From Pseudomonadota bacterium (GTDB taxonomy: Bacteria; Desulfobacterota; Binatia; Binatales; Binataceae): a DNA stretch of 64,000 nucleotides. Below, piece by piece: positions 5,804-59,844 of this stretch (position 1 is the stretch's first letter; every line of letters starts with the position of its first letter). The translations under genes were made by a program, and so were the position numbers. The stretch covers positions 190 to 64,189 of the forward strand of contig JAJPHZ010000007.1 in NCBI GenBank assembly GCA_021325025.1, given 5' to 3'. The notes below the pieces were generated by a model. That model was not told the origin of the DNA. It was given only the letters and a program-made list of their open reading frames with translations, and ran no database searches.

Positions 5804-6250
5804 CTACTCGCTGAGCAGATCGGCCAGCACCTCGGCGGCATGGATCCTGGGATCGACCTGCGGATAGGCGCGCAGGATTTTGCCCCGCTCGTCAATCACG
5901 TAGCTGATGCGCTCGGCGTGTGCGGCTTTGGCGCTGGCGCACGCCCCGTAAGCCATTCCCACCTTGCGCTCGGTGTCGCACAACAAGAGGAAGGGAAAGC
6001 TGAACTTTCTGGCAAAGGCGGCGTTGTCCTCGACGCTGTCGAAACTCACCCCGAGCACGACGACCCCATGCTCCTCGAAATAGCTGTACTGGTCGCGAAT
6101 GCTGCATCCCTCGGCGGTGCAGCCGGGTGTAGCGGCCTGCGGGTAGAACCACAGCAGGACCTTCCTGCCGCGCAGGCTCGACAGGCGCAGCGGCTCGCCC
6201 TGGTGGGTCATGGCGGTGAAGTCAGGGGCGTCGTCGCCGGGCTTCAGCAT
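5804..6250 (-). CDS. bcp: Peroxiredoxin Bcp (thiol peroxidase, AhpC/TSA family)
   Basis: APDFTAMTHQGEPLRLSSLRGRKVLLWFYPQAATPGCTAEGC, the canonical Bcp active-site context. Confidence 0.85.
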   Translation of the reverse strand: MLKPGDDAPDFTAMTHQGEPLRLSSLRGRKVLLWFYPQAATPGCTAEGCSIRDQYSYFEEHGVVVLGVSFDSVEDNAAFARKFSFPFLLLCDTERKVGMAYGACASAKAAHAERISYVIDERGKILRAYPQVDPRIHAAEVLADLLSE

Positions 6251-8206: not shown

Positions 8207-9658
8207 TCATGCGCTTGCGCCTGCCTGTTCGGAAGCCGCCTGCAGGTGGCCCTCGCGCACCGCTTTTACAAACAGTTTATAATCGCGCTCGGTCTGATCG
8301 GCGTAGTCAAGCGCGAACTGAGCGACTGCCGTATCGAAGGTGTCTTTGGTCCCGAGATAACCGGAAATCTCCGGTGCGCCGCCTGAACGGGCGTGCGCCT
8401 GGGCGAGGACCTGGCCGCATCGCACCCCGTAGTTCCTGAACACCAGGGGCTTCATCTCATGCACCAGCGGAGCGATCTTCATGTCGCGCAACTGGCGGAC
8501 GTAGAAATCGCGCCCACGCATGTCGCCGTGCGTCCAGCCCAGCAGCATGTCGCCCGCCGATTGCATCAGGCGCTGTCCCGCCGCCACGCGCTGGCCGTGG
8601 TTGGGGTATGCGCTCGGGCCCGCGTAAGGCTCCAGCACCGAAGCTCTGGCTTCCTTGAACTGAAGAAACAGCGGGTCGTTCTCGGCGGCCATGAACAGGG
8701 CGACGGCGCAGGTTGTGCCGACGCTGCCGACCCCGACCACCTTGAGCGCGACGTCGCACAGTTGGAAGCGCTCGAACAGGGCGCGGCAATGGTCGGGCAG
8801 CGAGCGGCGGTAAAGTTCCAGCGCCGTGCTCATCGCCTCCTGAAATTCCCGGCTGCGCTGGCGTTCGGAATGGAAGATCAGCGGCGGATTGTCCTTGATA
8901 CGCGGGATGGAGCCGCTATTTTCGGCCAGCCGGGGGAAGTCGTGGTCGTAAGCTCCGCGCCGGCGCGCCTTTTCGATCCGTGTCCGCAAAAATTTCTGAT
9001 GGCGTTTGTCCTGCATCTCGGCGACGAACTGATCGGCATCGCCCCTGTGGTACCAGATTTCCAACTGGCGCATGCGCGCAAACTGCGCCATCTGCTCGCG
9101 ATATGCACCCACCACCGCGGCGGCGGCGCCGGCGCATCCGTCCCGATCCAGACCAAGCTGGCGCCCTGCAACGGCGAAACTTGCGGCCAGCCGCTTGACA
9201 TCCCATTCGAACGGCGCCGGCAGTGTTTCGTCGAAGTCGTTGATGTCGAAGATGAGCCGGCGCTCGGGCGTGGCGAAGCCGCCGAAGTTGAGCAGATGGC
9301 AGTCGCCGCAGGCCTGGACGCGGATGCCGCTGGAGGGGGTACGCGCGAGGTCGGCCGCCATGATGGCCGCCGCGCCGCGGAAAAAAGCGAATGCCGATGG
9401 CAGCATCCGCCCGTGTCGAATCGGTACGAGGTGCGGCAGGCGTCCGTGGTTGGACGCGATCAGAAGCTCGATCGGGTCGGCCCGGTCCGCCGGCGCCGTC
9501 CACCCGGCATGACTGCGGCGCGGCACCGCTTCGCGCAGCGCCTTGCCCGCCGCACGGCGCTGTTCAGGAGATTGGTAAGGTGCGGTTGTGAGATCGGCAG
9601 AGGGCGCTTCGCCGCTGCGCGCCAAAGTCGCGTTCTGATGCATCGTCCACGTGACCAT
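8207..9658 (-). CDS. DUF2252-family protein (uncharacterized)
   Basis: 483 aa with QRLMQ / FYVRQLRD motifs recalled for DUF2252. No other assignable domain. Confidence 0.5.
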   Translation of the reverse strand: MVTWTMHQNATLARSGEAPSADLTTAPYQSPEQRRAAGKALREAVPRRSHAGWTAPADRADPIELLIASNHGRLPHLVPIRHGRMLPSAFAFFRGAAAIMAADLARTPSSGIRVQACGDCHLLNFGGFATPERRLIFDINDFDETLPAPFEWDVKRLAASFAVAGRQLGLDRDGCAGAAAAVVGAYREQMAQFARMRQLEIWYHRGDADQFVAEMQDKRHQKFLRTRIEKARRRGAYDHDFPRLAENSGSIPRIKDNPPLIFHSERQRSREFQEAMSTALELYRRSLPDHCRALFERFQLCDVALKVVGVGSVGTTCAVALFMAAENDPLFLQFKEARASVLEPYAGPSAYPNHGQRVAAGQRLMQSAGDMLLGWTHGDMRGRDFYVRQLRDMKIAPLVHEMKPLVFRNYGVRCGQVLAQAHARSGGAPEISGYLGTKDTFDTAVAQFALDYADQTERDYKLFVKAVREGHLQAASEQAGASA

Positions 9659-20737: not shown

Positions 20738-23206
20738 TTAGAACACTACCGTAACGGTTCCCAGCGACGCGGGCAGCCCTGACACTTCGATGATTCCGCC
20801 CTGGCCGTCGCTCAGGATGATGGAACCCTGCGCGAGGTTTTGCATCGAATTCAGCGTCGGCCGCAAACCATTGCCACCGCTCGAGCCGCAGCCTGTGGTC
20901 CACAGCGTGGCGGCCGCGATCAGGAAAATGACGGCTGGAGAAAGGGTGAGGGGCCGGCCCGCCAGTGCAACTGCAAGCAGAATGAACGCCCCGATCAGGG
21001 CGGCATACAGCGGCAGGGTGGATTGCGGCCAACTCCCGCTGCTGTCGCTCGGCGACCGGGTCAGTGCTGCTCCCGGCGGTATGGTGGCGGCGGCGGTGGC
21101 CTCCAGGTTGAGAGTGGCAGTGGCACCTGAAGGAATTGCCAACGGCGCGCCAAGGGCGAATACGGTGGTAGCCGCCGGTACTACCGCAACCGGGGCGAAG
21201 CTTGCGCCGCCCGCGGCGCCGCTCAGCGTCAGCTTGGAAAAAATATTGGGCGCCGTTAGTGTCACGGTCACCGAATCGAGCGACAGCGTCACCGCCGTCG
21301 TGTTGGTGACGGTGAAGCTTCCCGCGTGCGCAGTAGCGGTGGGAACAATCCTGGCCGTGGACGGCGACGCCGCCGCACTCGCGCCGGGAAAGGCTGCGAC
21401 CAGTTTGGCAAAATCGGGCGTCCCCCAGCCGCTGGCGAGATCGAAGCCGGGGCCGGCCTTGTAGCCCATTATGCCGTTGTCATCGTTGTTGCCGACCGTG
21501 ATGTCGTGCAATCCGAAATCCAAATTGCGCAAGTTCCCCAATTCATACAAACGCGGATTGATATTACCCAGCCGTGCCACGCCCTGGGACTGCGCGATAA
21601 GCCGGCTCAGCCCCGCCCACATCGGGCTGGCGATGGAGGTCCCGCCTGCAGGAGCAAAGCACACCTTGTCCATGTTCTTGTCATTGCAATGTTCGAGCGT
21701 GGCTGGACGGGTGCATGGCAGTGCCCGGCAGTTGGCGATGAGAAACCCGGGCGCGTTGCCGCTTGCGCCCAGGGCGATATCGGGCACGTCCCGTACACCG
21801 TCGTCGGGCACGCCGAAACCCTTCTGCCACAGTGGTTTGGCAAACAATGTGCTCTTGCCGCCGCTGCCCGCATCCTTGACCGGGCAATGGTCTGGCCCCG
21901 CCTGGCCATCATTCCAGACCGTTTTCAGATTGTCGCTAATTACGCTGGTGTCGTTGCCGGCCTTGTCGTAGACCGGGTCGAACATGGTGCCGCCCACCGA
22001 CGTCAGATAAGGGCTCGAACTTTCCTCGTCCACGCTGGGTTGCGAAAAGGTTGCGCCCTTGGGCAGGCCGCATTTGCATTGGTCGACACGCGGTTCGGTC
22101 GGCACCGCTTTGCCGCACGGCCAGTTGGCACCGAAATCGCCTGCCGCGTGGAACACGGTCTGGCCCTGCACGACCGCCTGGAGCAGCGTCGAGTTGTAGG
22201 CCAGGATGCTCGGAACGTCGGTGCATTGTATTGAAATCGAAGCGGTTATCACCCCGCATCGATTGTCCGCTACCGCTTGAGCAACGTCGTCAAAAAAATT
22301 GCCGAGATAGAAATAGATTGGTGTATTGGGAGCGACTGCATGGGCCCACTCGGCGTCGAGGTACGCCTCGCCATGACCGCTCAGGCCGGGATTGGTCCCA
22401 TTGACCAGAACCCGCGTCAGTATAATCGGCGGCAGGCCAAACTGGTCGTCGAAGGCAGCCAGAGCATTGTCGTTGACATCGCTGTTTTCCGCCATCGCTA
22501 TACAATCCGGAGTACCGGTGCCGCGGTTGCCGCCCGAAATAAGTGGCTTCACATCGTAGAATGTGTAGAGGTCGGGCGGTCCAAAGGCGGTTCCCACACC
22601 CGCAAGTGTAACGTCAGGAACAGGTCGCGCACCCTCAGCGGACGCCTGCTGGAATCTGCTCAAGCCTAAAATCGCCTGGATGACAGAGGCCAAATCGGCC
22701 GGCATTACGGGATCGTCCCGATTGGCATAACTGCTCCCGTCGCCAACGAGCACCGTCTGAAACGCGCGCTCCACAGTGTCGACATCGCCGCTGAAGTCAA
22801 TGCTGCGTTTACGGATGTCGCTGGCCGTCACCTGTAATCCCTGGCTGCGAAGCCATCCCGCCACCGCTTTCATCTGCGCCGGTGTGGGACCAAAACGGCT
22901 GACGAACTCCTCCGTCGTCAGCCATCGATGGTAACTGGGCGAATCGCGATTCTGCAGGTTGGCTTCCAGCTTCGTCAATTGATCAATATTGCGCAGCGTC
23001 AGGATCGCCCGCAGATGGAGGACCTGATTCGCGGCAAGCGGCTGCCAATCATCGGGAACATAGGCCGGATGGTTGTTGAGGATTGGCGTGCCACCCCCAG
23101 CGGACGCGCTACAGCGCAACGCACCAGCATATATCAGCGCCAGAGCGATCCCGACCGCCACGGCGGTCAGCCTGCGTATCGCAAACCAGGAATTGTCAAT
23201 GCGCAT
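20738..23206 (-). CDS. S53-family (sedolisin/kumamolisin-like) serine peptidase with pro-domain and a roughly 230-aa C-terminal extension carrying the FTVTN / dual-helix / GCGS module
   Basis: Signal peptide MRIDNSWFAIRRLTAVAVGIALALIYAGA. Pro-kumamolisin-like activation region. Catalytic Ser motif AGGTSIASPMWAGL. C-terminal tail homologous to ORF 5070..5798. Confidence 0.7.
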   Translation of the reverse strand: MRIDNSWFAIRRLTAVAVGIALALIYAGALRCSASAGGGTPILNNHPAYVPDDWQPLAANQVLHLRAILTLRNIDQLTKLEANLQNRDSPSYHRWLTTEEFVSRFGPTPAQMKAVAGWLRSQGLQVTASDIRKRSIDFSGDVDTVERAFQTVLVGDGSSYANRDDPVMPADLASVIQAILGLSRFQQASAEGARPVPDVTLAGVGTAFGPPDLYTFYDVKPLISGGNRGTGTPDCIAMAENSDVNDNALAAFDDQFGLPPIILTRVLVNGTNPGLSGHGEAYLDAEWAHAVAPNTPIYFYLGNFFDDVAQAVADNRCGVITASISIQCTDVPSILAYNSTLLQAVVQGQTVFHAAGDFGANWPCGKAVPTEPRVDQCKCGLPKGATFSQPSVDEESSSPYLTSVGGTMFDPVYDKAGNDTSVISDNLKTVWNDGQAGPDHCPVKDAGSGGKSTLFAKPLWQKGFGVPDDGVRDVPDIALGASGNAPGFLIANCRALPCTRPATLEHCNDKNMDKVCFAPAGGTSIASPMWAGLSRLIAQSQGVARLGNINPRLYELGNLRNLDFGLHDITVGNNDDNGIMGYKAGPGFDLASGWGTPDFAKLVAAFPGASAAASPSTARIVPTATAHAGSFTVTNTTAVTLSLDSVTVTLTAPNIFSKLTLSGAAGGASFAPVAVVPAATTVFALGAPLAIPSGATATLNLEATAAATIPPGAALTRSPSDSSGSWPQSTLPLYAALIGAFILLAVALAGRPLTLSPAVIFLIAAATLWTTGCGSSGGNGLRPTLNSMQNLAQGSIILSDGQGGIIEVSGLPASLGTVTVVF

Positions 23207-23613
23207 CGTACTCCTGCAAAATGCGGCGTTCAGAATATGTGCGGCAGAGAGATTAGCGGGAGCTTACGACATTATTTGATTTCACTCCGATCCCCTTTGT
23301 TGGGCGTTCATTTCTAACGACATAGCTGGGTGAGTCAATGGCGAAAAACGGGCACGAATGACAGGCTGAGGCTGCGACGCGAATGTCCATTTACTACGTT
23401 CGCGACGATCCTTTCAGGCAAGTGCCTTGGGCACGCTTGTTGCGTTGTAGGTGCGGGCGCGCGTTACACGCGCAAAGGGCGGTACGATTGCGACCCGCTA
23501 ATGTTTTTCGCTTGCCATAGGAGGAGAAGGCATCGCGCAGCGCGCGATGCGCGACAATGGCCGCCTTACTTTCAGATCCGACGCGTCGTGTTTCCATCAG
23601 CGCCATCGAGACC

Positions 23614-25896
23614 ATGCCAATCGTGGCGTTCCCGCTCACGATCTTCCTGGGGGCCTTCCTGCTGTTCGCAGTCGAGCCGATGATGGGCAAGGTCCTGCTG
23701 CCGTGGTTCGGCGGGGCGCCGTCGGTCTGGACGACCTGCATGCTTTTCTTCCAATTGCTGTTACTGGGTGGGTATGCCTACGCGCATGTGATCGCCACCG
23801 CCTTGCCTCCCCGCGCGCAGGCGAGTTTGCACCTGATGCTGGCGGCGCTCTGTATGGCGTCGATGACGGCTGCCGCGATAGTGTGGCGCTCACCCCTGAT
23901 ACCTCCGGCCGACTGGAAACCGGCGAGTCCCGAGTATCCCGCCCTGGGCATCCTGGCAATTCTGTTTACGGCGGCCGGATTGCCATATTTCACCCTGTCG
24001 GCGACCGCTTCGCTGCTGCAGCAGTGGTTCGCCGCCAGCCGCGCCGGCCGCTCGCCGTACCGTCTCTATGCACTGTCGAATCTTGGCTCGATGCTTGGAC
24101 TGGCCGCTTACCCGTTCCTCCTCGAACCCAGCCTCAACCTGCATCAACAGGCAATGCTCTGGTACTGGCTTTATGTCCTCTTCGCCTTGGGGCTTGCCTT
24201 GTCGGCGCTGTCATTGTGCGGTGGTGGCGCAGTCCCGGTAGCGCGCGCCGCAGCCTCAAGCCCTCAACCGCCGATCGAACTGGGCACCCAGTTGATGTGG
24301 GTTGCCCTGGCGGGGTGCGCCTCATTGATGTTTTTAGCGGTTACCAATCAGCTTTGCCAGGACATCGCCGCAGTTCCGTTCTTGTGGGTGTTGCCCCTGG
24401 GAATCTACCTGCTGTCGTTCGTCGTCTGCTTCGGCAATGAAAGTTGGTATCGGCGGGCAATTTTCAATCCCGCGCTGGCTGTTGCGATCGTCGCGTCGTG
24501 CGCCATCCTCTACCGCCCGTATACCGAAATCGTTTGGCAGGCCGTAATCTATTCGTTGCTGGTCGGTTCCTCATGCACGGTGTGTCACGGCGAGTTGGTC
24601 AGGCTCAAACCCGCACGTGGTGCCCTGACTCGATTCTATCTGATGGTCTCCGCCGGCGGAGCGCTGGGCGGATTGCTCAGTGCGGTACTGGCTCCGTGGC
24701 TGTTCCGTGGATACTGGGAACTGCATATTGCTATCTGGGGATGCGCCGCGCTGCTGTTCGTGGCATTGATGCGCGACCCTGCTTCGTGGCTTCATCAACC
24801 ACGCCCCATCCTCGCGATTGGGCTGCTCGCCGGCGCGCTGGCGCTGCCGGAACTAATATTGGCTGCGGCCGGCAACCTGACCTCCGCGCTATATTACAAT
24901 CTGACCGCGGGCTGGGCACTGATGGTGGTGGTTGGCGCGATACTGGCACGGCGCGACCGCAGGCGGACCGAGCAAAAGCGCGGCTTTGCGCCGGTGGCCG
25001 CCGCCGCGGTACTGCTGATGGTAGCCAGTGTGCTGCTGTCCAGTATTACCGCCAAACTCAACAACAGTCTGATTTCGATACGCAACTTTTACGGCGCCGC
25101 GGCGGTGATCGAGCGCGATGCTGCCGATCCCGCCTGGCATGCGTTTGTGCTGCGCCACGGCAGTATCGTGCACGGTGTCCAATATTCCGAGCCCGACAAG
25201 CGGCGCCAGCCCACGGCCTATTTCGGTCCAACCAGCGGTATAGGCCTGCTCATGCTCCACCATCCGCGGCGCATTTCGGTGGACCCGCGCGTGCGGACGG
25301 TGCGCGTTGGAGTGGTTGGTTTGGGCATCGGCACCATCGCCACCTACGGACGTCCCGGCGACTATATTCGCTTTTACGAAATCAATCCCGCGATTATCCA
25401 TCTTGCCACCGCGCGCAACGGTTACTTCAGCTACGTGCGCGACTCCCAGGCGCGGGTTGACATCGTGGCGGGCGACGCGCGTCTTTCAATGGAACGGGAG
25501 GTTAGGGATCAAAACGCACAGCGCTTCGACATCCTGGTGATCGACGCGTTCAGCGGGGACGCCATACCGGTTCATCTTCTGACCATCCAGGCCTTTGCTC
25601 TTTACCTCAGGGAGTTGAATCCCGACGGAGTCCTGGCACTGCACATCAGCAACAACCATCTCGATCTGAGGCCGGTGGCCGCGCGTCTGGCGAATCATTT
25701 CGGTCTACGCGGTGGATGGATTCACAGCGTGGCCGCGGACAGGATGACTCAACCCAGCGACTGGGTCGTGCTTGCGCGCGGCGCCAGTGTGCTGGCGCAG
25801 CCGGCCATCGCTTCGCAGTTAAGGCCGCTTGCGAGCGATGCGACTGTGGGTTTGTGGAGCGACGATTACAGCAACCTGTTCCGGATTCTGCGTTGA
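23614..25896 (+). CDS. Fused MFS-like polytopic membrane domain / spermidine-synthase-like methyltransferase-fold protein
   Basis: About 12 N-terminal hydrophobic helices. C-terminal ILVIDAFSGDAIPVHLLTIQAF, a spermine/spermidine synthase-like motif. Confidence 0.65.
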   Translation: MPIVAFPLTIFLGAFLLFAVEPMMGKVLLPWFGGAPSVWTTCMLFFQLLLLGGYAYAHVIATALPPRAQASLHLMLAALCMASMTAAAIVWRSPLIPPADWKPASPEYPALGILAILFTAAGLPYFTLSATASLLQQWFAASRAGRSPYRLYALSNLGSMLGLAAYPFLLEPSLNLHQQAMLWYWLYVLFALGLALSALSLCGGGAVPVARAAASSPQPPIELGTQLMWVALAGCASLMFLAVTNQLCQDIAAVPFLWVLPLGIYLLSFVVCFGNESWYRRAIFNPALAVAIVASCAILYRPYTEIVWQAVIYSLLVGSSCTVCHGELVRLKPARGALTRFYLMVSAGGALGGLLSAVLAPWLFRGYWELHIAIWGCAALLFVALMRDPASWLHQPRPILAIGLLAGALALPELILAAAGNLTSALYYNLTAGWALMVVVGAILARRDRRRTEQKRGFAPVAAAAVLLMVASVLLSSITAKLNNSLISIRNFYGAAAVIERDAADPAWHAFVLRHGSIVHGVQYSEPDKRRQPTAYFGPTSGIGLLMLHHPRRISVDPRVRTVRVGVVGLGIGTIATYGRPGDYIRFYEINPAIIHLATARNGYFSYVRDSQARVDIVAGDARLSMEREVRDQNAQRFDILVIDAFSGDAIPVHLLTIQAFALYLRELNPDGVLALHISNNHLDLRPVAARLANHFGLRGGWIHSVAADRMTQPSDWVVLARGASVLAQPAIASQLRPLASDATVGLWSDDYSNLFRILR

Positions 25897-27316: not shown

Positions 27317-28747
27317 TCAGATGCCGGCGAGCTTGCGTGCATATTCTGCGACTGTCCTGAAGTCATATTCCCGGTACATCTGCAACTTTTCTGCCTCAAA
27401 ACCACCCTCGGCATGAACCGCGAGCACTTCCTGGTAGCCGCCATAATCCGAAGCAGTCATATCGCCGATCAGATATAACAGACGCAGCCGCTGTTCGGCG
27501 CTCAATCCTTTGGCCCCGCCTAAAAATTTCGCGATATAGTCGCGGGTCGCAGCGTTGGTCAGGTCTTCGGCGGCCGGCGCTGTGACCAGCAGGCCGCCGG
27601 CGAGGTCCTGCAGGGTTTGCACCGCCTGATGGTAGTTGTGAGCGAAATGATATTTCGCCACGTTGACCAGCAGCGTGTTGGGTACGGCGATTCCATGTTC
27701 GATCGTGCAAGCCGCCGCCGCCCGCCGCAGCAGCGCCAGCGCGATAGTGTGGTAGGCAGCCAGCTGCGTAAGCTTGTCGCGCACATGCGCCGCGGCCGCA
27801 ATTCCGTTGGCCTCGGCGACGGCCGCACCCGCTCCCGCAAGCAGTTCCAGCAGCGGCAGTTTGTAGGAAACCGCGGTGAAACGATGAAAACGCACGAAGT
27901 TTATCGCCAGCGGACCGGCCAGCTCCGCCTCTCCGTCCAGGAAGACCCGCTCGTGGGGGACGAACACATCGTCGAACACCGTCAGCGTTTCCATCATCTT
28001 GCGCCGCGCGCTGATCGGATGCTCGATCGGGTTTTTGGGCTCGCTGCCGTGGGGACTGACAATAAGCTTCAGCCCCGGCGTGTTGAGCGGCAACGCGAAG
28101 GACAGTGCATAGGGTTCGTCGCCGGGGCGCATCGCCCGGGTGGGAAAGACGATCAGCTCATTGGCGTTGGCGGCCAGCGAGGTATGAACCTTGGCGCCGC
28201 GCACGATTATGCCGCCGGGATGCTCCGCCACCTTGCGCAAGTAGTAGTCGGGATGCTGCTGGGCGGCGGGTCCCAGGGAGCGATCGCCTTTGACGTCGGT
28301 TTGTGCCAGCGACAGTGCCAGGTCATGGTCGCGGCAATAGCGATAGTAACGCTGCACACGTTCGAGGTAGTGCGGTTTGCCGCGGTCGGCGAGCATGGTT
28401 GAGACCATGTACAGCGCAAACAGGGCTTCGGTTCCGATTTCCCTGAGCAGCACGGGATAGGTAGCGCCTTCGCGGGTGGTGGCGGCGATAAGTTCGGCGC
28501 GGATGAGTAAATCCTGCGCGCAGCGCGGTATCTGGTAAAAGCGGTTGTACAGTTCGCCGTCCTCTTCAACCACCGCCAGGGGGCGAAAGCGCGCATCGCA
28601 GGCCATCGTGTATTCCAGCGCCGCGTGCTCGACCGCGATGCGAATCACGGGATGCTCAGTTATGTCGGCAACGCGCCGTCCGCGGAAAAACACGCTGCGG
28701 TCATCGCGCAGCGATTCTCGATATTCCTGTGCGCTTCTGAGCGCCAC
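27317..28747 (-). CDS. HpaB / 4-hydroxybutyryl-CoA dehydratase (AbfD)-family flavoprotein
   Basis: N-terminus MALRSAQEYRESLRDDRSVFFRGRRVADITEHPV, typical of the 4-HPA 3-hydroxylase / 4-hydroxybutyryl-CoA dehydratase family. Length 476 aa. Confidence 0.65.
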   Translation of the reverse strand: MALRSAQEYRESLRDDRSVFFRGRRVADITEHPVIRIAVEHAALEYTMACDARFRPLAVVEEDGELYNRFYQIPRCAQDLLIRAELIAATTREGATYPVLLREIGTEALFALYMVSTMLADRGKPHYLERVQRYYRYCRDHDLALSLAQTDVKGDRSLGPAAQQHPDYYLRKVAEHPGGIIVRGAKVHTSLAANANELIVFPTRAMRPGDEPYALSFALPLNTPGLKLIVSPHGSEPKNPIEHPISARRKMMETLTVFDDVFVPHERVFLDGEAELAGPLAINFVRFHRFTAVSYKLPLLELLAGAGAAVAEANGIAAAAHVRDKLTQLAAYHTIALALLRRAAAACTIEHGIAVPNTLLVNVAKYHFAHNYHQAVQTLQDLAGGLLVTAPAAEDLTNAATRDYIAKFLGGAKGLSAEQRLRLLYLIGDMTASDYGGYQEVLAVHAEGGFEAEKLQMYREYDFRTVAEYARKLAGI

Positions 28748-45410: not shown

Positions 45411-45875
45411 TCAGGGTTCGACGGTCGCGGGTGACAGTGGCGGTTTGGCGTCGGGCGCCACGATGAATCCCATCGCCTTGAGTTGGGCGGCCAACCGCCG
45501 GCGGGTTTGTGTGACATCGAGCAATTGATGCGTCCGGTATTTGCGGACTTCGGTGGCAGTGTAAGGCTTGAAGTGCGCGGGAAGCTGCGCGCGGCTGAAC
45601 GTCAGCAGCATCCAATTCAATACCGCGGCGATTTCCTGGTCGCTGAGCGCGGCGGCGGCGACGCCCGGCACTTCGACCAGGTAGGCGCGTCCCTCGGGAA
45701 TGCGCACAAAGTAGCCCATCGAGCCGGCCAGCCGCGGCACACTGCCCGCAATCCCTTGTGCGTGCGGCTGATGGCATCCCCAGCAATGGAGCGTGTAGAG
45801 CTGCTCGGGCGGAGCGGCATGTACAGTCGCCGCCGCGCCGAGAACAACGATCGCTGTCCACGTCCGCCATTTCAT
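45411..45875 (-). CDS. Class I c-type cytochrome (monoheme)
   Basis: Signal peptide then CWGCH heme-binding motif. About 130-aa mature protein. Confidence 0.75.
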   Translation of the reverse strand: MKWRTWTAIVVLGAAATVHAAPPEQLYTLHCWGCHQPHAQGIAGSVPRLAGSMGYFVRIPEGRAYLVEVPGVAAAALSDQEIAAVLNWMLLTFSRAQLPAHFKPYTATEVRKYRTHQLLDVTQTRRRLAAQLKAMGFIVAPDAKPPLSPATVEP

Positions 45876-45994
45876 CGAACAACGTAGCTACTACTTCATA
45901 GCGGGCCGCTTCAAGATTCCGCGAACGCGGCGAAACCCCCGCTCTGGCCGGCGCGAAACTCTTTGCTCCGTAGCGCGCCGGCACGTTCGGGTTG

Positions 45995-46546
45995 CTACCG
46001 TGACGCTTGCGACTTGACCGAGATGCCCAGCATCTGTAACTCGCGGTAAACCGCGGTCGAGGTCATCTGGTGGGTGCGATTGCGTCTGACTTCGCGGGCG
46101 GTGAACGGCACGAAGTTTTTGGGCAGAAGGCCGGCGTTGAAGCTGGTGAGGACATGGTTTAGGAGCTGCGCGATCTCGTCGTCGCTCAACTGCGCCCAGG
46201 ATTGCATGACACCGTTGTAAGTCATCCCGCGTACCGTGATGGGACCGATCAGCCCGAATGACAGCACGTGCACCAGATACGCGCGGCCATCTTTGGAATG
46301 TGCGAATTCGCCCACCGAGTCGGCCAGCGGCGGATACATGGCGGGAATCCCACGTCCGTCCGCCTGATGGCAAACTGCGCAGTGCACCGCGAACAACTGC
46401 GCTCCCGACGCGTGGGCGAGGCCGCCCCAGGCTATCGCGCCGGCGGCGGCGGCGATGAAAGCGATTGGCGCAAGCAGGCCGGGCGCCGAAGCCGGCGCTG
46501 CGGGACACGCGGTCGTTGTCACGGGATTTCGGCGCCAACGTTTCAA
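45995..46546 (-). CDS. Class I c-type cytochrome (monoheme), paralog of 45411..45875
   Basis: CAVCH motif. ...GRAYLVHV... aligns with ...GRAYLVEV... in the neighbour. Start uncertain (TTG 46546 or GTG 46522) because the stop-to-stop ORF would overlap the light-chain gene. Confidence 0.65.
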   Translation of the reverse strand: MKRWRRNPVTTTACPAAPASAPGLLAPIAFIAAAAGAIAWGGLAHASGAQLFAVHCAVCHQADGRGIPAMYPPLADSVGEFAHSKDGRAYLVHVLSFGLIGPITVRGMTYNGVMQSWAQLSDDEIAQLLNHVLTSFNAGLLPKNFVPFTAREVRRNRTHQMTSTAVYRELQMLGISVKSQASR

Positions 46547-46556
46547 ATATCTTCGG

Positions 46557-47063
46557 CTAGCTCTTGAGCGCGAGCTTGACGGCCGTAGTGCAGTTGACGA
46601 CAAAGCTGGAGGTCCCGTAGCACCAGGTCACGCCGTTGTCGAGTTGCGTACGATACAGGGGCAGGTCGCCCTTGTTGTTCTGGCAGAAGCAGCGTCCACA
46701 ATTATCCTTTCCGCAGCAGTCGCGGTAGCCGATTATGTACTCCTTGCCGTCGACCGGATTGCGGCAGGTTCCTACCCACGAGGTGGGCGACATCAGCGTC
46801 CCCGGCGGACACTCGGTGGTGCTGCCGCCGCAGCATCCGCACAACGAACCGTCGAAGCCGCAGTAGCGCCAGTAATCGCAGCTCAGCGGGTCGCCCTCGC
46901 CGGGTGCGGGTTCGGCCGCGTGGGCGCGGGCGGCGACGCGTTCCACCGGCAGCAGCGGCAGCGCGATCGCGCCCAGGATAACTCTGCCGATCAGAGCAAG
47001 CATTCCGCGCCGCGAGGTGCGCATCGCGACCTGGCGTGTGACCCGTTCAACCAGCGCATCCAT
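46557..47063 (-). CDS. mauA: Methylamine/aromatic-amine dehydrogenase light (small) subunit carrying the TTQ cofactor (MauA-like)
   Basis: Twin-arginine leader (SRRGMLALIG). Mature part CDYWRYCGFDGSLCGCCGGSTTECPPGT...SWVGTC..P.DG..YIIGYRDCCG...GRCFC...G.LPLYR...TWCYG matches the MADH light chain 12-Cys pattern. Both TTQ-forming Trp positions are present. Confidence 0.85.
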   Translation of the reverse strand: MDALVERVTRQVAMRTSRRGMLALIGRVILGAIALPLLPVERVAARAHAAEPAPGEGDPLSCDYWRYCGFDGSLCGCCGGSTTECPPGTLMSPTSWVGTCRNPVDGKEYIIGYRDCCGKDNCGRCFCQNNKGDLPLYRTQLDNGVTWCYGTSSFVVNCTTAVKLALKS

Positions 47064-47092
47064 TGCATTCGTCCACCGTCAAACGCTCCCGG

Positions 47093-48277
47093 CTACGGAC
47101 CGAAGATCCACATCGGAAAGCCGGGCAGCTGGTCCATCGCCCCCAGGTATCGTCCGGTTTTGGTCGCGAACGATTGAAGCGTCGGTCCGCTGGCCATTCC
47201 GCCCGGTTCCGGCAGCGAGAGCGCAAACAGCCGCGGGTCACGGTCCTGTGTGACATGGATTTCGGCCGCCGGACGCGGCAGCACGATTTTGTCAACACGC
47301 TGCTTGCGCGCCGCGTCATACACCCACACTTCGATGCCGAACTGCTTGTGAGTCCATTCGCCGCCCCGATGCATCAGGACGTAAAACAACCCGCCGGGCG
47401 CGTAGGCGCCAAGCGGTTGGTATCCGCCGGGCCGCCATCCTTGTTTGCGCTCCGCGTCGGTCACCAACGGCCAGGGCTTTTGCGCGGTCGCCGGGTCCGA
47501 TGACCAATCAACCGGATACACCATCGCGTGATAGCTGATGAAATAGGCGGTTTTGCCGAGCATCGCGGGCACGCTGAACACCGGATCCTTTTCGGGATCG
47601 AAAAACGGCTTGGCCATGCGCTTGGCACCCACGGCCTTGCCGCTGTCGTTGAAGTCGATCGTCAACATCGCCCCGTCGCCGCACAGCGATTGCAACCGGC
47701 GCGGGCCCGAAAGCAGCACGCCGGTGCATCCCGCGGTGTCGATTTCTCCCGCCACTTGGTTATTGGCGATGTCGACCACCGTGATCGAGGTCGCCGGCGT
47801 CAGGTTGGCCACCAGCAGCAAGCGCCCGTCAGAGGTCAGCGCCATGGCGGAGCTGTCGGGCGGGATATGCATCTGGCGCTTGGGCGGAATTATCACTTCG
47901 CGCACCGGCGCCAGCCGTCGCGCGTCGTAAGTCGTGACCACGTCGGTGCGATCGCCGCGCGAGCCGCGCGAGTAGAAGGTATCGGCCGTGAAGATGAACT
48001 TGCGATCGCGCGACAGGGCGGCGATGCCCAACAGGCCGCCGGTGAGCATCCCCAGCATCTGCAGCGAGTCGCCGTCAACGATTTCGACTTTGGTTGAGAT
48101 CTCGCTGTCAAGTCCGGCGGGGCTTACGAGGAATACCCAATGCGGCGCGACCGGTCCCAGTTCGCGGACCCGCACACCTTCAGGAGGGGGCGTCTGGGCG
48201 AACGCATTTGCCGCCGCAAGCCAGAGCGCGGCGCACAAAACATTCAGTAAGGTGTGAAATCCGGCGCGCATCCCCAC
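47093..48277 (-). CDS. mauB: Methylamine/aromatic-amine dehydrogenase heavy (large) subunit, 7-bladed beta-propeller (MauB-like)
   Basis: Signal peptide. 394 aa. C-terminal ...IHVTQDRDPRLFALS resembles MauB (...VSQDEKPLLYALS). 30 bp upstream of the light chain on the same strand. Confidence 0.75.
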   Translation of the reverse strand: MGMRAGFHTLLNVLCAALWLAAANAFAQTPPPEGVRVRELGPVAPHWVFLVSPAGLDSEISTKVEIVDGDSLQMLGMLTGGLLGIAALSRDRKFIFTADTFYSRGSRGDRTDVVTTYDARRLAPVREVIIPPKRQMHIPPDSSAMALTSDGRLLLVANLTPATSITVVDIANNQVAGEIDTAGCTGVLLSGPRRLQSLCGDGAMLTIDFNDSGKAVGAKRMAKPFFDPEKDPVFSVPAMLGKTAYFISYHAMVYPVDWSSDPATAQKPWPLVTDAERKQGWRPGGYQPLGAYAPGGLFYVLMHRGGEWTHKQFGIEVWVYDAARKQRVDKIVLPRPAAEIHVTQDRDPRLFALSLPEPGGMASGPTLQSFATKTGRYLGAMDQLPGFPMWIFGP

Positions 48278-48403
48278 TTCTGCCCGCGCGGCCCTTGCGA
48301 CTGCGGTGCACCCTGCGGACCGGCCCCCAGCCGTCCAAACGCGGCGCAGGCAATGAAAGCCTTTCGCCCTGTAGCACTTTTGTAAGAATATTTACAACCG
48401 CGC

Positions 48404-59280: not shown

Positions 59281-59844
59281 CTACCTGCCCTCGGGCAGGT
59301 CGACGAACACTGCGGCAGCCACCACCGTGGTCCACAACCCGTCGCGGTCGCCAATCGCCGATTGCGTGACGTTGCGCGTGGTGACGATCTTGTCCGACAT
59401 GCGCCAGATGTTCTTGCGCTCGTCGTAGCTGGTGTTGGGGTCGAAGTCGACGCCCAGGATCGTCGCCAACATCGAGGCCGCCAGGTCTTCGGCGTAATCG
59501 CCCGCCTTCTGGTCGGTCTCGCCGAAACTGTGATGCTCGGAGAGATAGCCGTAATGGGCGGGATTGGACGGAATCGCCAGCCCGACCGAAGCGGCGACCA
59601 GCCGATGCGGCTCGTTGGTCGCGTTCTCGTGCATCACCGTGAACACGATCTGCCCCGGCGTCAGATGCTTGAGCCCTTCCTGGATCGGGATCAGCCTGCA
59701 GTTGGGCGGGAAAATCGAGCTGACGCGCACCAGGTTGAACTCAGCGATTCCGGCGCTGCGCAAGGCCAGCTCAAAGGAGGTGAGCTTCTCCCGATGCTTG
59801 CCGACACCCTTGGTCAGGAAGATACCTTTTGCGACTGGCCCCAT
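59281..59844 (-). CDS. pdaD: Pyruvoyl-dependent arginine decarboxylase (PdaD/AaxB family) proenzyme
   Basis: ALRSAGIAEFNLVRVSSIFPPNCRLIP aligns with the archaeal PdaD self-cleavage region (..NLIRISSIMPP..). Ser-Ser pair present. 187 aa. Confidence 0.7.
   Translation of the reverse strand: MGPVAKGIFLTKGVGKHREKLTSFELALRSAGIAEFNLVRVSSIFPPNCRLIPIQEGLKHLTPGQIVFTVMHENATNEPHRLVAASVGLAIPSNPAHYGYLSEHHSFGETDQKAGDYAEDLAASMLATILGVDFDPNTSYDERKNIWRMSDKIVTTRNVTQSAIGDRDGLWTTVVAAAVFVDLPEGR

Follow-up and report, generated by a model that had tools for sequence, protein, structure and literature searches.

How does an amine dehydrogenase that relies on tryptophan tryptophylquinone (TTQ) come by its cofactor, and where do its electrons go, when its operon consists of two subunit genes and two cytochrome c genes? 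The question is raised by a locus in a 64,000-nucleotide stretch of contig JAJPHZ010000007.1 (the whole of which is called the window below) from an uncultured soil bacterium of the Binataceae (Binatota). The minus strand between positions 45411 and 48277 carries four co-directional open reading frames (ORFs), in the order heavy chain, light chain, cyt1 and cyt2. Searches with PF06433, PF02975 and PF00034 bear out a preliminary description of the sequence, which had assigned these ORFs to the two subunits of a TTQ enzyme and, behind them, to two monohaem cytochromes c of class I. All four products bear predicted export signals. We consider it likely that the locus is a self-contained Binataceae operon for a periplasmic α2β2 TTQ primary-amine dehydrogenase of the aau type, that it belongs to a cytochrome-c-linked clade lacking MauG, and that mauE and mauD have been displaced from it.

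In the mechanism that we favor, the α2β2 enzyme would oxidize a primary amine to an aldehyde and ammonia via TTQ, and the reduced TTQ would pass its electrons to the co-encoded c552-type cytochromes, not to a cupredoxin. The genes mauE and mauD would ancestrally have stood between the subunit genes and would have moved out in the sublineage of the window; their products, whose genes most likely lie at another site of the genome, would fold the seven-disulfide light chain in trans. Since MauG is missing beside the operon, here and throughout the clade, TTQ would be completed by whichever route, with MauG in trans or independent of MauG, serves the whole aau-type clade.

The heavy (alpha) chain gene (47093..48277, minus strand) encodes a predicted seven-bladed propeller that matches PF06433 with an E-value of 6.4e-46 (157 bits, cut-off 21). 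Its frame can open with a GTG at 48277 or an ATG at 48271; the ATG, which is probably the start, yields 392 residues, the same product as that of the gene callers on identical contigs. A Sec-type signal peptide is predicted to end between AFA and Q. The best relative of solved structure is the alpha subunit of the aromatic amine dehydrogenase (AADH) of Alcaligenes faecalis (E 1.5e-56, 195 bits), compared to E 4e-38 and 134 bits for methylamine dehydrogenase (MADH). Against NCBIfam model TIGR02658 the heavy chain scores 155.8, under the equivalog cut-off of 454.45.

The light (beta) chain gene (46557..47063, minus strand) follows at once; the adjacency described before stands, with a gap of 29 nt instead of 30 bp. 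Its product is a precursor of 168 residues with a long leader containing the twin-arginine-type motif TSRRGML. The original light-chain call holds under a profile search (PF02975, E 6e-45), and the score against NCBIfam TIGR02659 is 172.3, under the equivalog cut-off of 196.85. In alignments to 3C75_L, 2AGL_D and other structures, Trp96 and Trp147 fall on Trp57 and Trp108 of MADH, the tryptophans that form TTQ, while Asp71, Asp115 and Thr159 fall on Asp32, Asp76 (the catalytic aspartate) and Thr122. The columns of the TTQ tryptophans and of the catalytic residues are invariant among 31 homologues. The light chain contains 14 cysteines, all of which align with those of the A. faecalis AADH beta subunit, compared to 12 in MADH; the preliminary description was right about both tryptophans and mistaken in its 12-cysteine pattern. 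The residue preceding the second TTQ tryptophan is Thr146 in the window, an asparagine in AADH and Ile107 in MADH. Among Binatota it varies between Thr, Tyr, Ile and Asp, which hints at diversified substrate specificities.

Because both subunits score under the equivalog cut-offs, the heavy chain is nearer to AADH and the light chain has 14 cysteines, the enzyme is classified here, by sequence, as an aau-type TTQ amine dehydrogenase and not as a canonical MADH. A neighbor-joining tree of 98 heavy chains sets the MADH loci L086 and L089 apart on a long branch (L numbers denote our genome loci). All other heavy chains, including those of A. faecalis AADH and the window, form one large clade, within which the Binatota are monophyletic. 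The nearest genome loci are those of Candidatus Binataceae metagenome-assembled genomes (MAGs), with light-chain identities of 86% and 82%.

The A. faecalis enzyme (2AGL, 2H3X) shares with that of the window the two TTQ subunits, the 14-cysteine light chain, both TTQ tryptophans and the catalytic aspartate, and the two clusters are alike in lacking mauG, mauF, mauJ, mauM and mauN and in having a cytochrome c gene past the light chain. The differences are that the window has no mauE/mauD between the subunit genes, two cytochromes where A. faecalis has one, a threonine in place of the AADH asparagine before the second TTQ tryptophan, and no counterpart of the azurin partner; moreover, the Binatota form a separate deep branch, with ∼40% identity where the heavy chains align. 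In A. faecalis itself the aau cluster reportedly lacks mauG, mauF, mauL, mauM and mauN and has a monohaem cytochrome gene past aauA, and recombinant AADH is said to have been made in P. denitrificans from aauBEDA together with that cytochrome gene. The MADH of Paracoccus denitrificans and P. versutus (mauFBEDACJGMN) has in common with the window the two-subunit TTQ fold, the catalytic residues and a twin-arginine-type light-chain leader, and its heavy-mauE-mauD-light arrangement is the ancestral gene order, seen in relatives of the window. In contrast to it, the window enzyme has 14 rather than 12 light-chain cysteines and scores under the TIGR02658 and TIGR02659 cut-offs, and its locus lacks amicyanin, MauG, MauF, MauJ, MauM and MauN, with cytochromes c past the light chain in the place of amicyanin.

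Is the rest of a mau cluster elsewhere in the window? Hidden Markov models (HMMs) of MauE, MauD, MauG, MauF, MauJ, MauM, MauN and amicyanin, built from P. denitrificans and relatives, were run on all six-frame ORFs of the 64 kb, and no match was found outside the four operon genes. Searches of the same 64 kb with tblastn at E≤10 for mau accessory genes, MauG and azurin returned chance-level matches only. A scan for CxxCH found no window ORF with two such motifs and hence no candidate for a dihaem CCP_MauG protein (PF03150), and a Pfam scan of ∼44 window ORFs gave housekeeping and catabolic genes with no mau accessory protein or cupredoxin among them. The reported absence of mauE, mauD, mauG and amicyanin from the operon can thus be extended to the whole 64 kb. 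An AhpC/TSA protein at 5804-6250 was considered as a substitute for MauD and rejected, being a short Bcp-type peroxiredoxin 40 kb away with a chance-level MauD match.

The same question was asked of the clade at large. Of 593 genome loci confirmed as matches to a light-chain profile, the best 80 were taken together with flanks of 10 kb and scanned with the same HMMs. The most frequent arrangement is heavy-mauE-mauD-light followed by cyt2 (21 loci), then heavy-mauE-mauD-light with cyt1-cyt2 (19 loci), adjacent heavy-light genes with no cytochrome (17 loci), heavy-light with cyt2 (9 loci) and heavy-light with cyt1-cyt2 (7 loci); the remaining loci of the 80 are variants, including tandem paralogues. 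The exact layout of the window also occurs in the Gammaproteobacteria (L033, L058 and L072). The HMM scan of the 10-kb flanks found MauG adjoining the operon in none of the 80 loci. The preliminary description had taken MauG and a cupredoxin to be general in characterized mau and aau clusters; this is true of the MADH type alone, represented by P. denitrificans (L086, mauFBEDA-amicyanin-mauJGMN) and Indioceanicola (L089), both of which carry mauF, mauJ, mauG, mauM and mauN. Cytochrome c genes past the light chain, with no MauG and no cupredoxin, are the norm of the clade and not a peculiarity of the window. Since clusters with MauG and cupredoxin are limited to the MADH type, the “minimal” look of the window locus mostly reflects this norm. 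Public annotation has the same order: a P. aeruginosa plasmid locus is annotated aauB-mauE-mauD-aauA-cycA-cycA, and a Cupriavidus plasmid has this aau order followed by an aldehyde dehydrogenase gene.

Several loci depart from these layouts. The only CCP_MauG gene within 10 kb of any of the 80 loci, ∼2 kb from the cluster in L025 and with a tyrosine at the position of MauG Tyr294, was rejected as a linked MauG; it is set apart from the cluster by an opposite-strand gene for a CCA-adding enzyme and lies beside a Dps/ferritin gene. The sole cupredoxin-like ORF near the 80 loci (L041, 5286-6152, minus strand) is a weak match, identical to amicyanin at 28% of 90 residues (E 6e-6), and stands divergently upstream of a Binataceae heavy-light-cyt2 operon. 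A second light-chain gene follows cyt2 directly, without a second heavy chain, in the Binatota loci L008 (11980-12606), L010 (11532-12074) and L012 (11645-12187). Seven gammaproteobacterial loci (L028, L029, L036, L042, L062, L075 and L079) contain tandem paralogous enzymes in the order heavy-light-heavy-[mauE-mauD]-light-cyt2, where one accessory set and one cyt2 apparently serve two dehydrogenases. In L096 (5165-14127) an aau-type TTQ cluster is found on the same contig beside a cluster for a quinohemoprotein amine dehydrogenase (with cysteine tryptophylquinone and a radical-SAM protein), and in both L095 and L096 a CN_hydrolase gene is located directly upstream of the heavy chain. On plasmid pNL2 of Novosphingobium aromaticivorans (L088), the light chain is followed by a 161-residue hypothetical protein (8519-9004) with no match to Pfam or to the cyt1 and cyt2 HMMs, and a c-type cytochrome gene is found upstream of the heavy chain instead.

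Only the loss of mauE and mauD in cis is thus specific to the window locus, and even this is shared by about a quarter of the clade (∼21 of the 80 loci have heavy-light without mauE/mauD within 10 kb). The ancestral heavy-mauE-mauD-light order is kept in relatives at 54-71% light-chain identity (L001-L004, L008-L013, L018, L021-L023 and L025). In the closest relatives (L006, L007 and L097), mauD and mauE come right behind heavy-light-cyt1-cyt2, in opposite orientation. The window is syntenic with L006 and L097 through the upstream genes (for a P-type ATPase, TerC and SnoaL) and as far as cyt2, where the correspondence stops exactly. As the pair is inverted in the closest relatives and synteny stops at this point, we infer that mauE and mauD left their ancestral site in the sublineage of the window.

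A search with the MauD of L006 led to an orphan mauE-mauD pair (P0272; L100, 1169-2315, ena:ERZ27279671:k141_400546; also L101-L106), which has no adjoining TTQ subunit gene and is flanked by genes for a FIST-domain protein and for M20 and S41 peptidases. The pair has an intact CPVC motif. It belongs to the MauD/MauE subclade of the closest relatives, with identities of 73-81% (MauD) and 60-66% (MauE) to L006, L007 and L097, similar to those of the window to the same loci (heavy chain 73-75%, cyt2 65-66%). Seven samples contain the exact cyt2 of the window, and in four of them (ERZ27279671, ERZ27279669, GCA_037025265.1 and JGI 3300027706) the exact orphan protein occurs as well. With a GC fraction of 0.647 the orphan is close to the window (0.640), the relatives having 0.60-0.62. 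Its tetranucleotide profile correlates with that of the window at 0.984, a value inside the range of the window's own 10-kb chunks (0.960-0.989); other Binatota loci give 0.967-0.977. On balance, we lean toward regarding the orphan pair as the mauED of the window organism. That bare heavy-light loci are common, that one MAG contains both a complete (L011) and a bare (L015) locus, and that the orphan pair exists together suggest that mauE and mauD act in trans for the window operon. The preliminary description had left a choice between maturation genes located elsewhere and a different route; for mauE and mauD the co-occurrence of the orphan pair speaks for the former, and the MauG part of the choice concerns the whole clade and not the window locus alone.

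The two cytochromes past the light chain are not equivalent. The gene for cyt1, with the haem motif CAVCH, most likely occupies 45995..46546 on the minus strand (the longest ORF extends to 46603). Among the candidate starts, a TTG at 46546, a GTG at 46521 and a far TTG at 46603, the first is the most likely; it lies 11 nt past the light-chain stop and would give ∼183 residues including a signal peptide. On the identical public contigs (L091-L094), gene callers shortened cyt1 to 114 residues from an internal ATG. The shortened version lacks the signal peptide and the CAVCH motif and has no Pfam match; a functional cyt1 ORF requires a TTG or GTG start. The protein matches PF00034 (E 2.2e-11) and, over the whole mature domain, Thermus thermophilus cytochrome c552 (2FWL/1C52, E 7.6e-35), with which it shares CxxCH, the Met ligand in YNGVM and a C-terminal extension. 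Thermus c552 donates electrons to the ba3 and caa3 terminal oxidases. Since cyt1 is a close homologue of c552, which feeds terminal oxidases, this His/Met cytochrome is a plausible carrier from the dehydrogenase to a terminal oxidase or the respiratory chain. The window cytochromes differ from Thermus c552 in that they are embedded in an amine dehydrogenase operon and have no terminal-oxidase linkage.

The gene for cyt2 (45411..45875, minus strand, haem motif CWGCH) encodes 154 residues with a predicted signal peptide ending between VHA and A. The two cytochromes had been described as tandem, monohaem and of ∼150 residues each, which is accurate apart from the size of cyt1. The PF00034 match of cyt2 is confined to the N-terminal residues 24-54, no NCBIfam model matches, and its homologues are mostly annotated as hypothetical. 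It shares the family framework of Thermus c552 (E 2.7e-13) and is a paralogue of the family of cyt1. However, in the alignment to 1C52 a deletion of 18 residues takes out the loop of the Met ligand. All 78 cyt2 orthologues, drawn from Binatota and from Alpha-, Beta- and Gammaproteobacteria, show the deletion, and the histidine of CxxCH is the only Met, His, Lys or Tyr conserved in every one of them. The only fold matches in the PDB of an AlphaFold2 model of cyt2 (pLDDT 76.5) are Thermus c552; cytochromes that bind ligands, such as SHP or cytochrome c', were not among the matches. In most of the 80 loci cyt2 is located directly behind the light chain or cyt1, and it is the more constant partner, present where cyt1 is absent. 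Reverse look-ups of three encoding contigs placed all three homologues in a TTQ operon, directly past the light chain in L095 and L096 and past cyt1 in L091-L094, the population of the window. As far as its sequence tells, cyt2 may accept electrons in an unusual way, or its haem may bind ligands and take part in cofactor maturation.

The second possibility can be carried further. The Met-less cyt2, alone or with cyt1, could supply a MauG-like oxidizing haem chemistry, with periplasmic Dsb proteins replacing MauE and MauD, so that TTQ maturation would be intrinsic to the operon. The position of cyt2 past the light chain or cyt1 in most of these MauG-less loci, its return from the reverse look-ups in such operons only, the lost Met loop with no conserved replacement ligand, which fits an open, ligand-binding haem, and the quarter of loci without mauE/mauD within 10 kb all agree with this proposal. 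Yet MauG is generally known to need two haems for its bis-Fe(IV) state, and many loci have cyt2 alone; the 17 bare heavy-light loci have no cytochrome at all; plain electron acceptance accounts equally well for the linkage of cyt2; and a candidate orphan mauED exists for the organism of the window. We therefore regard intrinsic maturation as improbable. The more specific proposal, that cyt2 represents an uncurated, c552-derived family without the Met loop that is restricted to MauG-less TTQ operons and matures the light-chain tryptophans with or without cyt1, seems to us similarly doubtful. If true, it would imply a MauG-independent TTQ route for the whole aau-type clade, with the window operon as a minimal self-sufficient example.

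A canonical MADH with a split mau cluster, in which mauG, mauE/mauD and amicyanin lie elsewhere in normal order and the cytochromes are downstream carriers like c551i, appears still less probable. The top-scoring PDB match of the light chain is indeed the MADH precursor 3C75_L (E 9e-47, leader region included), JGI and NCBI label homologues “methylamine dehydrogenase light chain”, and a study of the Binatota lists mauA/mauB and assumes amicyanin (PMC8262859). Against these stand the scores of both subunits under the equivalog cut-offs, the heavy-chain bit scores of 195 for AADH and 134 for MADH, the AADH pattern of 14 cysteines and the separation of the window from the MADH loci in the tree. 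In addition, neither MauG nor mauF, mauJ, mauM or mauN adjoins any of the 80 related loci, yet both MADH-type loci examined have them.

Upstream of the heavy-chain gene, a promoter-like element, TTGTAA-N18-TACAGG (48368..48397, minus strand), was read from the sequence, and the motif TTGTAA-N17/18-TACAsGGCGAAAGGCTTT is kept 5' of the heavy chain in the relative L006. A sigma-70 consensus scan and a terminator scan gave nothing significant and did not call this element, which we infer to act as the promoter of the heavy-chain gene. A perfect palindrome, TTGTAA-N6-TTACAA, at 48380-48397 overlaps the −35-like hexamer and is a possible operator; none of L001, L002, L005, L006, L007 and L013 showed it.

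Four independent assemblies match the window at 99.7-99.99% identity over 5-8 kb with the same gene order, and because they agree, the arrangement is not an assembly artefact. Ratios of nonsynonymous to synonymous substitution rates (dN/dS) against L006 and L007 are 0.17-0.22 for the heavy chain, 0.12-0.13 for the light chain, 0.22-0.25 for cyt1 and 0.27-0.34 for cyt2. The distances to outgroups equal those of relatives that retain mauDE, with no rate acceleration. All four genes are under purifying selection, and the operon is intact and not decaying. That it is a remnant, non-functional after the loss of mauE/mauD from the locus, is very improbable. In its favor, the light chain of P. denitrificans requires mauE and mauD to accumulate, cyt1 lacks an ATG at its start and is shortened by automatic callers, and the genes of cyt1 and cyt2, which overlap in relatives, lie 119 nt apart. 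Against it, the four ORFs are intact with their catalytic and haem motifs, dN/dS is 0.12-0.34, the outgroup distances are as in the relatives that keep mauDE, the locus is stable across four assemblies and the promoter-like element is conserved.

For the aau-type operon with displaced mauED, several points weigh on the other side. The window brings 64 kb of the genome into view, and MauG, cupredoxins or another copy of mauED may lie beyond it. The substrate, cofactor and electron-transfer roles assigned to the Binatota clade are read from genes. AADH of A. faecalis uses azurin in vitro, so that a cytochrome acceptor is unproven even for the type enzyme. The link between the orphan mauE-mauD pair and the window is circumstantial because other Binatota, with at least one related population (L097), share the samples; tetranucleotide profiles, in turn, separate Binatota weakly.

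The window otherwise contains housekeeping and catabolic genes, with genes for a P-type ATPase and TerC upstream, genes for an enoyl-CoA hydratase, a short-chain dehydrogenase/reductase and a hydrolase downstream, and RecBCD-like genes; no RNA family of Rfam was found in the window. Two further genes could relate to the amine substrate, or their presence could be a coincidence: a pyruvoyl-dependent arginine decarboxylase (59281-59844, minus strand), which makes the primary amine agmatine, lies 11 kb from the operon, and an HpaB-type 4-hydroxyphenylacetate 3-hydroxylase (27317-28747, minus strand) lies 17 kb from it. Elsewhere in the window, a 779-residue ORF (23557-25896, plus strand), which has a single CTVCH motif, good coding statistics and no match in Pfam, forms a divergent pair with the gene of an 822-residue protein that has a pro-kumamolisin (sedolisin) activation domain (20738-23206, minus strand).

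The mauA/mauB genes of Binatota have been interpreted as an amicyanin-linked methylamine dehydrogenase and used as evidence of methylotrophy (PMC8262859). As judged from its genes, the window locus does not support this reading. Neither the locus nor its relatives pass the MADH equivalog tests; they fall in the clade that contains AADH and have cytochromes c in place of a cupredoxin, which leaves the Binatota enzymes without a proven substrate or electron route. The window locus itself is an ordinary, intact member of its clade, and its mauE and mauD have most likely been relocated within the genome. The lack of MauG characterizes a large and widespread clade and not the window locus in particular, and it sharpens the question of how aau-type enzymes make TTQ. 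Its conserved Met-less partner cyt2, which has neither a Pfam-wide nor an NCBIfam model of its own, merits spectroscopic attention.

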